Origin: Nanobdellota archaeon
GTDB taxonomy: Archaea > Nanobdellota > Nanobdellia > Woesearchaeales > JAHWHD01
Reading direction: 5' to 3'
Assembly (NCBI GenBank): GCA_034722435.1
Contig: JAYENX010000058.1
Coordinates: forward strand, 1-58,356
Length of the DNA: 58,356 bases
Shown: in pieces, positions 44,668 through 47,404 of the stretch
Layout of the letters: the number at the start of each line of letters is the position of its first letter
Position numbering within the stretch: position 1 is the first letter of the stretch
Notes under the pieces: model-generated
What the model saw: only the letters and a program-made list of their open reading frames with translations
Database searches by the model: none
Told to the model about the DNA's origin: nothing
Translations under genes and position numbers: made by a program

Positions 44668-45099
44668 TTATATTTTTTTAAGTTCTTGAGAGAATATTAT
44701 TAAATGTTTTTTTTGGATTAATTCTTTATTGTATATTACTATCAATGTTGCATCCTTTGAAGAGGTTAAGTCTTTGAGATTTAAAATAAAATGTAAGACT
44801 TTTTCAAAGGGATTTGCTTCTAAAAGAAGATTTATATCTTTGATTATGATTAAAGTGTTAGTATTTGTTTTCATAAAACTATCTGATTCGTATAAAATTT
44901 GTTCAAGGTCAGTAGGATCTATATCTCCATCTGTTGATAATTTAAAAAAATTTTTAGATTTGATAGGGAGTGATTCAAGATCTTTTGAGAAGGATATAAT
45001 TTGAAACTTTTGATATTTAGATAAACACTTTGTCGAATCAGCTAAATAACTGCCTTTTTTAACAGTTTTCTTAAATAGTGAAGAAAATACGAATTTCAT
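44668..45099 (-). CDS. DUF835-like protein
   Basis: IIIKDINLLLEANPFEKVLHFILNLKD...ATLIV. ATG 45099 is 24 nt from the shared TATA box; the track start is TTG 45111. Confidence 0.65.
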   Translation of the reverse strand: MKFVFSSLFKKTVKKGSYLADSTKCLSKYQKFQIISFSKDLESLPIKSKNFFKLSTDGDIDPTDLEQILYESDSFMKTNTNTLIIIKDINLLLEANPFEKVLHFILNLKDLTSSKDATLIVIYNKELIQKKHLIIFSQELKKI

Positions 45100-45153: not shown

Positions 45154-46293
45154 ATGAAAAGTAAAGATGAGTTAGAAGGCGTAATGTTTAGTTATACTGC
45201 AGATTCCAATCAGGTCGAAGAAGAAAATAGAATGTTGAAAGAAGCTGTTGAAAGATTGAATAATGAATTAGGAAAATATAAAATTCCGCCTTTAATGGTG
45301 TGTGAAGTCTGTGAAGTTGTTGATGATAAAGTAATGATTAGAATTCCAAATGGGAATCAATTTTTAGTTAATATTTCTGAAAAATGTAAGAAAGTTGAAG
45401 CAGGGGATTCTGTTTTAGTTGAACAAAAAAATTTAACAATCATAAATAAACATAATTCTACTAAAAAGTTTGATGTTGAAAAGTTTGTAATAATGGATAA
45501 GCCAGATCTTAAATGGAATCAAATAGGTGGATTGAAAGCTCAAATTCAAGAGATTATTGAAGTTGTGGAACTACCATTGAAAAAGCCTGAATTATTTAGG
45601 AAAATAGGAATACAACCTCATAAAGGAGTATTATTATACGGACCTCCGGGAACAGGAAAAACACTGCTCGCAAAAGCTGTTGCTCATAGTACTAATTCGA
45701 CATTTATAGAAATTGTGGGTTCTGAACTTGTACAAAAGTTTATTGGCGAAGGTGCTAAATTAGTTAAAGAAGTTTTTCAACTTGCTAGAGAAAAAGCGCC
45801 TTCAATCATATTTATTGATGAGATTGATGCACTTGCTGCTAAAAGGATTGAAATTGGTACTTCTGGTGAAAGAGAAGTACAAAGAACATTTATGCAGATG
45901 TTGGCTGAACTTGATGGGTTTAAGCCTTTAGGAGATGTTAAAGTCATAGGTGCAACAAACAGGAAAGATATATTGGATCCCGCAGTATTAAGACCTGGAA
46001 GGCTTGATAGACTTATTGAAGTTCCAGTACCTAATAAAGAAGGTATTAAACAAATTTTTGACATTCATACTAAAAAGATGAGTCTTGATAAAAGCATTAA
46101 TCCAAAGGAATTAATTGAACTCATGATTAATTTTTCAGGTGCAGAAATTAAAGCAACGTGTACTGAAGCAGGATATTTTGCAATACGAAATAAAAGAAAT
46201 AAAGTTTTAAGGAAAGATTTCTTAAGTGCCATTGATAAAGTTAAAGATTTTGAAGACACTGATAATGATGAATATCTGCGCATGATGGGATAG
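45154..46293 (+). CDS. pan: Proteasome-activating nucleotidase
   Basis: Coiled coil + OB domain, GPPGTGKT, IFIDEID, ATNR...LDPAVLRPGRLDR. Confidence 0.97.
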   Translation: MKSKDELEGVMFSYTADSNQVEEENRMLKEAVERLNNELGKYKIPPLMVCEVCEVVDDKVMIRIPNGNQFLVNISEKCKKVEAGDSVLVEQKNLTIINKHNSTKKFDVEKFVIMDKPDLKWNQIGGLKAQIQEIIEVVELPLKKPELFRKIGIQPHKGVLLYGPPGTGKTLLAKAVAHSTNSTFIEIVGSELVQKFIGEGAKLVKEVFQLAREKAPSIIFIDEIDALAAKRIEIGTSGEREVQRTFMQMLAELDGFKPLGDVKVIGATNRKDILDPAVLRPGRLDRLIEVPVPNKEGIKQIFDIHTKKMSLDKSINPKELIELMINFSGAEIKATCTEAGYFAIRNKRNKVLRKDFLSAIDKVKDFEDTDNDEYLRMMG

Positions 46294-46299
46294 AAATCT

Positions 46300-46375
46300 G
46301 TGCAGTGCTATCCAGTTACTTCCGTTCATCATCCTTTCGTCAGATGGTGTTCACTAGATCATTGCACTGTTGCAC
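46300..46375 (-). ncRNA. Box C/D-like small RNA with two K-turn motifs
   Basis: Minus strand reads GTGC-AAC-AGTGC-A-ATGATCT-AGTGAACACCAT-CTGA-CGAAAGG-ATGATGA-ACGGAAGTAACTG-GATA-GCACT-GCAC. It has canonical D' and C' boxes around a C(GAAA)G loop, 12-13 nt spacers and a terminal stem, and is GC-rich relative to its flanks. Confidence 0.75.
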
Positions 46376-46378
46376 TTT

Positions 46379-47404
46379 CTATAAAATCTTAAAATCAAAA
46401 CAGATTCTATAAACATGCGGCGCATGTTGACCACATTTAACAAGATTAAGAGATTTATATTTAATGTTTGCCCTTTTACATGCATTTTTCACCTTTTGTT
46501 TTGCTTTATTAAACTCTTTATCATTTAAAAAGTCATAAAAATGGATGATAGTTCCTTTTTTTGAAGCCAATAGTGCAATAGGCAAAAAGTCTTCTGCTGA
46601 TTTAGGTAATGGCATAAGTATTCTATCAAATTTTGTTTTAAGCTTTGGAATTATATCTTTAACATCTCCGTTAAATAATTTGACATTTTTTATCTTATTT
46701 AATTTTAAATTGCCTAAAGCATATTTATGAGCATCAGGATTAATTTCTACACCTATAATTTCCTCTGCTTCAGTATTTTTAGATAATATTACTGGATAAG
46801 GTGCACAACCCGAGAACATAACTAAAATAAACTCCCCAGGTTTTACTAAATTATAAATTCGTTTTCGTTCAGTACTAAGTCTTGCAGAAAAATAAACTTT
46901 TTCAGGATTAAACTTAAGAAGGGCATTATTTTCTTTATATGTTATAATCTTATTTTTTCTCCCTGCAATTATTTTAAGCTTTTGAAGTCTAAATACTCCG
47001 CTATGAATGCCTACTTTTTTTGCTACAGTTTTAATAGATGAGTTTATTTTAAGTAATGTATCACCTATAAGTTTCTGTTTTTTAACCAGAATTTCGTCAA
47101 TTTCAATGATTGCCATATCTCCTAAAATGTCATAAGCAGTCTTGAGATGTTGTAATTCTAATTTAGTAAGGACATTTTTTAATGTTTCTTTAAGATTTGT
47201 CTTTTTTAGTATTGTTTTTAAATTCTTTTCTATGAAGATAGGCGATTTAATTATTTGTTTGACTTGTTTTTCATCAGTTATAGGGAAGAAAACATGGTGC
47301 GTATCCGAAGTGGTTGCAAAACGTCTGTTATATAAATTATTAGTAATGAGAATTTTCTTTATTTTCTCTGCAGAAGATTTTTTAATTTTTAATGTTAAAA
47401 CCAT
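46379..47404 (-). CDS. trm5: tRNA (guanine37-N1)-methyltransferase, Trm5/Met-10+ family
   Basis: AYDILGDMAII, KVYFSARL..ERKR, MFSGCAPY, FDRILMPLP, IIHFY. Confidence 0.9.
   Translation of the reverse strand: MVLTLKIKKSSAEKIKKILITNNLYNRRFATTSDTHHVFFPITDEKQVKQIIKSPIFIEKNLKTILKKTNLKETLKNVLTKLELQHLKTAYDILGDMAIIEIDEILVKKQKLIGDTLLKINSSIKTVAKKVGIHSGVFRLQKLKIIAGRKNKIITYKENNALLKFNPEKVYFSARLSTERKRIYNLVKPGEFILVMFSGCAPYPVILSKNTEAEEIIGVEINPDAHKYALGNLKLNKIKNVKLFNGDVKDIIPKLKTKFDRILMPLPKSAEDFLPIALLASKKGTIIHFYDFLNDKEFNKAKQKVKNACKRANIKYKSLNLVKCGQHAPHVYRICFDFKIL

Follow-up and report, generated by a model that had tools for sequence, protein, structure and literature searches.

Does the short element lying between two convergent genes of a small-genome DPANN archaeon encode a guide RNA, and if so, which nucleotides would it guide? 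The window analysed here is a 58,356-nt stretch of DNA from an assembly of 1.3 Mb (60 contigs, ~28% G+C, 94.5% complete). On its minus strand, a gene at 46379-47404 (ORF 46382-47404) belongs to the tRNA m1G37 methyltransferase Trm5/TYW2 family according to Pfam (PF02475, 1e-39; PF25133; PF18093), in agreement with the original prediction, and is referred to as trm5. FEN1/XPG lies upstream of it, and the closest relatives of its product come from 'Candidatus Woesearchaeota archaeon' MAGs. A PAN-like AAA+ ATPase gene (PF00004, 1.8e-43; PF16450) is encoded on the plus strand at 45154-46293, convergent with trm5. The 85-nt gap between these genes is entirely taken up by the element, which we call the sRNA; it comprises 76 nt of the minus strand (46300-46375), delimited by outer GUG...CAC pairs, and lies directly downstream of trm5, starting 3 nt past its stop codon (TAG at 46381-46379, then AAA), while the PAN stop abuts its 3' end. 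Its G+C content is ~42-45% as against ~28% for the genome, and it folds modestly better than shuffled sequences (z = -2.6). An additional UAGAAA/UUUCUA pairing (46291-46299 with 46376-46384) is possible and stretches the helix to 46291-46384, over the stop codons of both neighbours. The extension might signal processing or termination; in a congener, all 9 nt that separate the sRNA from the PAN stop (46291-46299) are identical (100%).

The sRNA has the anatomy of a dual-guide box C/D sRNA. Read along the minus strand, the 5' half of the terminal stem (46364-46375) consists of GUG (46375-46373), a 3-nt CAA bulge and CAGUGC (46369-46364), and its partner (46300-46308) consists of GCACUG (46308-46303) and CAC (46302-46300); the inner stem has six pairs, each with double-sided changes in the family described below. 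The 5' half is followed by a box C-like AUGAUCU (46356-46362), in which the UGA core is intact and positions 5-7 (U, C, U) pair with A, G and G on the 3' strand, and by the 12-nt D' guide AGUGAACACCAU (46344-46355), whose N+5 nucleotide is A46348. Box D' is a canonical CUGA (46340-46343), the first nucleotide of which covaries with position 6 of box C'. A C-GAAA-G mini-hairpin plus G (46333-46339) closes the internal kink-turn in a K-loop-like manner, and a canonical box C', AUGAUGA (46326-46332), leads to the 13-nt D guide ACGGAAGUAACUG (46313-46325). A box D-like GAUA (46309-46312) then precedes the stem; A is retained at position 1n, and U stands in place of G at 2n. The motifs, the 12- and 13-nt spacers and the 3-nt distance from the trm5 stop had all been predicted and hold base for base, as does the distinction between canonical internal boxes (CUGA/AUGAUGA) and a divergent terminal pair (AUGAUCU/GAUA). 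Closing helices had been drawn as AGTGC/GCACT and GTGC/GCAC; helices do exist there, but they are better drawn as CAGUGC/GCACUG and GUG/CAC across the 3-nt bulge. Rfam gave no matches in the window at the gathering threshold, and with permissive E-values the best C/D matches within 46200-46480 scored 11-17 bits against gathering scores of 42-60. Matches to bablM and SNORD79 were dismissed as chance.

A BLAST comparison with 40 relatives yielded homologues in numerous families of the order, with coverage from box C to the end of the second guide. We aligned 16 of them (alignment A1) and built a covariance model, R1, on this alignment. R1 matches 130 of the 151 genomes sampled from the order (100 of 115 high-quality genomes), with one high-scoring copy, and also six genomes from other orders of the class; in the genome studied here, the match covers 46294-46378 with 87.5 bits. 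These tallies take in two unpublished genomes (G001 and G133), on which no individual claim depends, the congener sequence being that of the public record JAHWHD010000060.1 (L025). In that congener, 74 of 76 nt of the sRNA are identical (97.4%), AUGAUCU and GAUA included, whereas identity is 69% for trm5 DNA, 74% for PAN DNA (69-76% for flanking coding DNA) and 65% for the Trm5 protein. The two differences, A to G at bulge position L1 and GAAA to GCAA, are both structurally neutral. The element is more than a chance arrangement because of these homologues, in the order as in the congener, and, as judged by sequence comparison, it is under purifying selection.

Conservation extends to the predicted structure. 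In A1, 88.9% of pair cells hold standard pairs, compared with 70.7% in shuffles, and 10 of 13 pairs show double-sided changes; sliding the register by 1-3 columns lowers pairing to 24-42%. A model-fitted alignment of 34 sequences agrees with A1, and all six terminal-stem pairs covary in it. Across both alignments, 88-89% of paired cells are standard as against 71-73% in shuffles, none of 500 shuffles attains the score, and slid registers give 24-44%. The 4b-4n pair of the terminal kink-turn in the 34-sequence alignment is UA in 19 sequences, GC in 7 and CG in 6, and the corresponding C'/D' pair, paired in 100% of 33 sequences, is CG in 27, AU in 5 and GC in 1. The family C box is AUGA followed by three variable nucleotides that covary with the 5' nucleotides of the D box, and the internal loop of many relatives is a true hairpin with a 1-5-bp stem and a GNRA or UUCG-type cap. 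Thus, covariation supports the predicted terminal stem and both predicted kink-turn stems, and the checks of conservation and covariation that had been proposed for this element both came out in its favor. We consider it very likely that Woesearchaeota-type DPANN archaea share an order-wide dual-guide box C/D sRNA, of which the element is the version in this genome.

The position of the homologues bears on whether the element might do something other than guiding. In most homologues with 3 kb of context, the sRNA lies between trm5 and the PAN gene. One of the relatives, L018 (G030:C1, ~428183-428262), has at this place an sRNA with canonical boxes, the same D guide and a different D' guide, UCUUUACCCAU, which suggests a guide replacement at the syntenic locus. 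At three other trm5 loci (L014, L036 and L049), the Trm5 match is in two pieces (residues ~85-253 and 252-340) separated by ~700-820 nt, which suggests that something, perhaps an element or a domain, has been inserted in trm5. In the genome studied here, the sRNA fills the whole convergent gap and its outermost pairing covers both stop codons, and L7Ae is known to bind kink-turns in mRNAs (PMC5539422), so that the element could be read as a bidirectional terminator, a 3'-UTR stability hairpin for trm5/PAN or an L7Ae-binding regulatory element. This reading is very unlikely. In many relatives, ~190-200 nt separate the aligned trm5 end from the homologue, and in some a TATA-like box precedes the terminal stem by 25-30 nt and a T-run follows it; the best-conserved parts of the sRNA are the two single-stranded guides and not the stems; and a terminator needs neither 12-13-nt box spacing nor rRNA complementarity at N+5.

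U2552 (E. coli numbering) in the A-loop of 23S rRNA is a site that is ribose-methylated in all domains, and the functional counterpart in eukaryotes is snR52, for Um2921. The D' guide had been predicted from the +5 rule to target this nucleotide. The rRNA operon of the genome is on contig C56, and the D' guide forms 9 contiguous Watson-Crick pairs with its 23S rRNA at LSU 2625-2633 (GGUGUUCAC, helix 92; the target stretch reads …GGGGUGUUCACC…). A46348, the N+5 nucleotide, is placed opposite U2627, which aligns to E. coli U2552, so that the prediction holds for the organism's own rRNA. The guide core GUGAACACC is nearly invariant across the family. Many relatives have guide ends CACCC and GGUG, with which the duplex would reach 10-11 bp, assuming an A-loop identical to that of this genome. 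Because about 5% of shuffled guides attain a 9-bp match somewhere in 16S and 23S, the assignment of U2552 is based not on how long the duplex is but on where exactly N+5 falls and on conservation. Of seven archaea surveyed, five have an sRNA predicted to target U2552 (Dennis et al. 2015, PMC4644070), and according to PMC7994747, which cites Hansen 2002, the A-loop is always modified at U2552 and/or G2553. In our judgement, the sRNA is very probably a functional guide for Um2552 through its canonical C'/D' half.

The genome encodes the proteins that such a guide requires, as had been proposed for checking. Genes for fibrillarin (PF01269, 281.7 bits) and Nop5 (PF01798, 194.6 bits) are adjacent on contig C8 (8197-9482), and L7Ae (PF01248, 99.9 bits) is encoded on contig C36 (6822-7097). 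A second and weaker L7Ae-family match (44 bits; G000:C11:9177-9437) is interrupted by two in-frame stop codons, a TGA and a TAA; it may be a pseudogene, reflect a frame problem or represent another gene of the L7Ae/L30e fold. A true RrmJ/FtsJ was not found in the 94.5%-complete assembly, where the only PF01728 matches scored 25-30 bits, and Pfam assigned these three to two RsmB/F m5C methyltransferases and one generic class I methyltransferase. Since no stand-alone RrmJ/FtsJ-type enzyme was found, Um2552 is probably RNA-guided in this genome, and the sRNA is probably the only route to it.

From these observations, the following mechanism can be proposed. L7Ae would bind the internal C'/D' kink-turn, which is intact, and provide the platform on which Nop5 and fibrillarin assemble. 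The 12-nt D' guide would pair with helix 92, and fibrillarin would 2'-O-methylate the rRNA nucleotide that faces the fifth guide residue counted upstream from D', namely the equivalent of U2552. The D guide would bind the strand 5' of CCGGGGAUAAC (E. coli 2435-2444), where it would either direct Um2438 or serve as a second anchor in domain V. The sRNA would probably be freed from a trm5 read-through transcript or be made from a promoter inside the 3' end of trm5. It is possible that trm5 and the sRNA are co-transcribed; within trm5, 29 nt ahead of the outer stem, there is a TTTATA, which is uninformative at 28% G+C.

The second target is less sharply defined. The best rRNA match of the D guide is AGUUACU at LSU 2474-2480 (E. 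coli 2435-2441), a 7-bp duplex directly 5' of CCGGGGAUAAC, and after a 1-nt bulge in the guide three further pairs form with CCG, giving a two-part site at E. coli 2435-2444 within …AAGUUACUCCGG…. N+5 would then be LSU U2477, that is, E. coli U2438. The original prediction had located the target just before CCGGGGAUAAC, which is where it was found, but the predicted sequence AGUUACUUCCG contains an extra U compared with the actual AGUUACUCCGG, and the duplex of 7 bp, bulge and 3 bp is no better than those of shuffles. Seven base pairs is the median of shuffled guides, so the match is by itself at chance level, and the rRNA target of the D guide is plausible by location only. Apart from the antisense strands of the two sRNA genes, no full-length complement of the D guide was found in the genome. 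The guide-tRNA comparison used aragorn calls, which numbered only 4-15 and included some with spurious giant introns. Within the family, GUAACU and the upstream GG of the D guide are nearly invariant and the two nucleotides between them vary, a pattern that fits a two-part duplex. Near-invariance, an identical guide in a paralogue and retention in relatives without a D box together argue for a functional D guide. Compared with E. coli, the 23S rRNA has ~35 additional A/U-rich nucleotides (G000:C56, ~44915-44949; LSU ~2518-2552), inserted in domain V between the equivalents of ~2480 and 2490 and near the targets of both guides; this insertion may be an expansion segment or a mini-intron. The 16S match (G000:C56:47758-49363) is 1606 nt long against a model of 1478 positions and contains insertions as well.

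The paralogue is a canonical C/D sRNA on contig C26 (G000:C26:10820-10890, minus strand) with the order AUGAUGA - AGUUAUUCCCGG - CUGA - UACA - AUGAUGA - ACGGAAGUAACUG - CUGA. It shares with the studied sRNA an identical C' box and D guide, the overall length and the box spacing, and differs in having perfect AUGAUGA/CUGA terminal boxes and a D' guide that aims at CCGGGGAUAAC and not at the A-loop. This D' guide, AGUUAUUCCCGG, forms 11 bp (one G-U) with its target, and its N+5 is the equivalent of E. coli G2446. After the shared D guide, the studied sRNA lacks the CUGA that would precede GAUA, unlike the paralogue. One could conclude that the sRNA is a functionless, decaying pseudogene of this paralogue, produced by a D-box deletion (…AACUG[CUGA]GAUA…) and a C-box mutation, since its whole 3' half, C' box and 13-nt D guide, is identical to that of the C26 sRNA and the CUGA is absent. 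We regard this as extremely unlikely: the locus is orthologous to the order-wide syntenic trm5-PAN sRNA and is not a recent copy, identity in the congener is 97% compared with 69-76% in neighboring DNA, the D' guide is unlike that of the paralogue and has a first-rate target, and compensatory changes uphold the variant helix in one of the relatives (L057). It was also considered that the variant D box is tolerated thanks to redundancy with the paralogue. This holds in the genome studied here but fails generally, as four searched relatives whose sRNA lacks GA each have only one module of C' box and D guide.

What, then, is the divergent terminal motif of this probable guide? Archaeal C/D motifs lose L7Ae binding when their tandem G-A pairs are disrupted. 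In the terminal motif of the sRNA, the 5' strand comprises an AAU bulge that overlaps the C-like box, G1b, A2b, U3b, C4b and U5b, and the 3' strand A1n, U2n, A3n, G4n and G5n. The first sheared pair, G-A (G46360/A46309), is intact, and the second is A-U instead of A-G (A46359/U46310); beyond it come a Watson-Crick U-A (U46358-A46311), a C-G and a wobble U-G. The motif had been described as a kink-turn with compensatory UC/GA pairing. Such pairing is real, as Watson-Crick pairs at 3b-3n and 4b-4n, but the main departure lies elsewhere, in the U that replaces G at 2n. Other registers that might supply a canonical D box (CUGG, or a kink-turn bulged on the 3' strand) were inspected by eye, and none gives G-A/A-G beside the stem. 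RNAfold predicts a continuous plain 7-bp helix. Canonical terminal boxes (RUGAUGA/CUGA with tandem G-A/A-G) are thus absent here and are present in 81 of 90 homologues, from which it follows that the family is canonical and the copy studied here is a variant.

The variants among homologues show how this state is distributed. Among 90 distinct homologues, 2n-1n is GA in 81, UA in 6 and CA in 1, and two (L007 and L118) lack G-A and form a full Watson-Crick helix; U therefore occupies 2n in six of the nine non-GA homologues. All seven UA variants, the present one included, retain a 3-nt RAU bulge, G1b, A2b and A1n. In L057, G-A and A-U are kept while the next three pairs are swapped on both sides (U-A to G-C, C-G to U-A and U-G to G-U), and L070 and L090 have U-G at 3b-3n. 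Grouped by eye, most non-GA variants belong to homologues whose outer stem is extended and bulged, for example GUGCAAC-AGUGC … GCACUG-CAC. This group contains GA (L094), UA (the sRNA studied here, L025, L070, L090 and L057), CA (L079) and no motif (L007 and L118), and UA is also found in a second group without an extended outer stem (L010 and L092). L007 keeps both guides and canonical C'/D' boxes. In each of four searched genomes whose sRNA lacks GA, that of L007 among them, no other RNA has the module of C' box and D guide, and the D guide is thus kept even without a D box. Because it is identical in the congener, where the flanks are only 69-76% identical, the UA state is neither an assembly error nor recent decay.

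A natural kink-turn with A-U at 2b-2n is known: Kt-23 of Thermus thermophilus, in which U2nC abolishes folding (Schroeder and Lilley 2009, PMC2790904). The terminal motif shares with it a 3-nt bulge (here AAU), G-A at 1b-1n and A2b opposite U at 2n. It differs at 3b-3n, where Kt-23 depends on a non-Watson-Crick U-G for its ion-induced folding, whereas the sRNA has U46358-A46311, which is capable of Watson-Crick pairing and is followed by further Watson-Crick or wobble pairs. In Kt-23, the change G3nA, which likewise gives a Watson-Crick-capable U-A, nearly abolishes folding, and in Kt-7, A-U at 2b-2n stops ion-induced folding (PMC2790904). The Kt-23 of Thelohania, with A at 2n, is bound by L7Ae (PMC3985660); for a motif with U at 2n, no report of L7Ae binding was found in the literature examined. 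By analogy, U at 2n in the present context may stop the kink-turn from folding spontaneously. Whether the motif would still work as an L7Ae-induced kink-turn of the Kt-23 type is, in our estimate, evenly balanced.

Within the main reading, a narrower one has to be weighed, in which the terminal motif is a bulged closing helix, only C'/D' recruits L7Ae, Nop5 and fibrillarin, only U2552 is methylated, and the D guide is a non-methylating anchor or chaperone. The motif appears by eye to erode stepwise among extended-stem homologues, from GA through UA and CA to none; the D guide is kept without a D box in GA-less relatives; the RNAfold prediction is a continuous helix; U-A at 3b-3n disfavors folding (PMC2790904); and orphan guides held for rRNA folding have been proposed before (PMC6009581). 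On the other hand, a mere closing helix would need none of the RAU bulge, G1b, A2b and A1n that all seven UA variants keep, and U is strongly over-represented among the replacements at 2n, of which it alone is known to fit a natural kink-turn, as C does not (PMC2790904). The narrower reading must also contend with a further consideration. Efficient methylation by archaeal sRNPs in vitro needs both the C/D and the C'/D' RNPs. We therefore hold it as a real possibility, though not the favored one. That the terminal kink-turn of extended-stem homologues is being replaced by a plain helix, with guides and internal kink-turn left intact, is a somewhat more tentative proposal. If it is true, a natural C/D guide RNP would work with only its internal L7Ae site, opposite to what is seen in eukaryotes, and the D guide would persist purely as an anchor or chaperone.

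The class of RNA, the mechanism and the A-loop target are already known, and in this respect the result is incremental. Archaeal dual-guide U2552 C/D sRNAs (PMC4644070) have the same order of C, guide, D', C', guide and D, the same 12-13-nt spacers, N+5 on the first A-loop nucleotide and both guides directed toward domain V, and they need L7Ae, Nop5 and fibrillarin, all of which are encoded here. The present sRNA differs from them in a terminal box D without the invariant G (GAUA) and a box C ending in CU. It also differs from described families in showing no sequence or Rfam match and in its host, a mesophilic small-genome DPANN archaeon. In Pyrobaculum and Pyrococcus, according to Lui et al. 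2018 (PMC6009581), 3-11% of sRNA genes have non-canonical K-motifs; like the present one, these are true C/D sRNAs that standard models miss through their unusual boxes. In the sRNA studied here, divergence affects the terminal motif and spares the internal one, which is perfect, and a course from canonical through variant to plain helix can be traced within one family. The literature search returned no paper joining Woesearchaeota with sRNA or fibrillarin. In the literature searched, there appears to be no description of the family, of its linkage with trm5 and PAN throughout the order, of the probability that Um2552 depends on this RNA alone, or of the graded loss of the terminal kink-turn beside a perfect internal one.

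For annotation, the covariance model R1 can be used to mark the sRNA in the genomes it matches (130 of 151 sampled in the order). In its terminal motif, the family presents a naturally occurring set of box C/D kink-turn mutants, which bears on how much terminal kink-turn an archaeal sRNP needs and on whether L7Ae accepts U at 2n. In summary, the locus points to a guide RNA of DPANN archaea that has escaped annotation, occurs across the order and would serve the universally conserved methylation of the A-loop.
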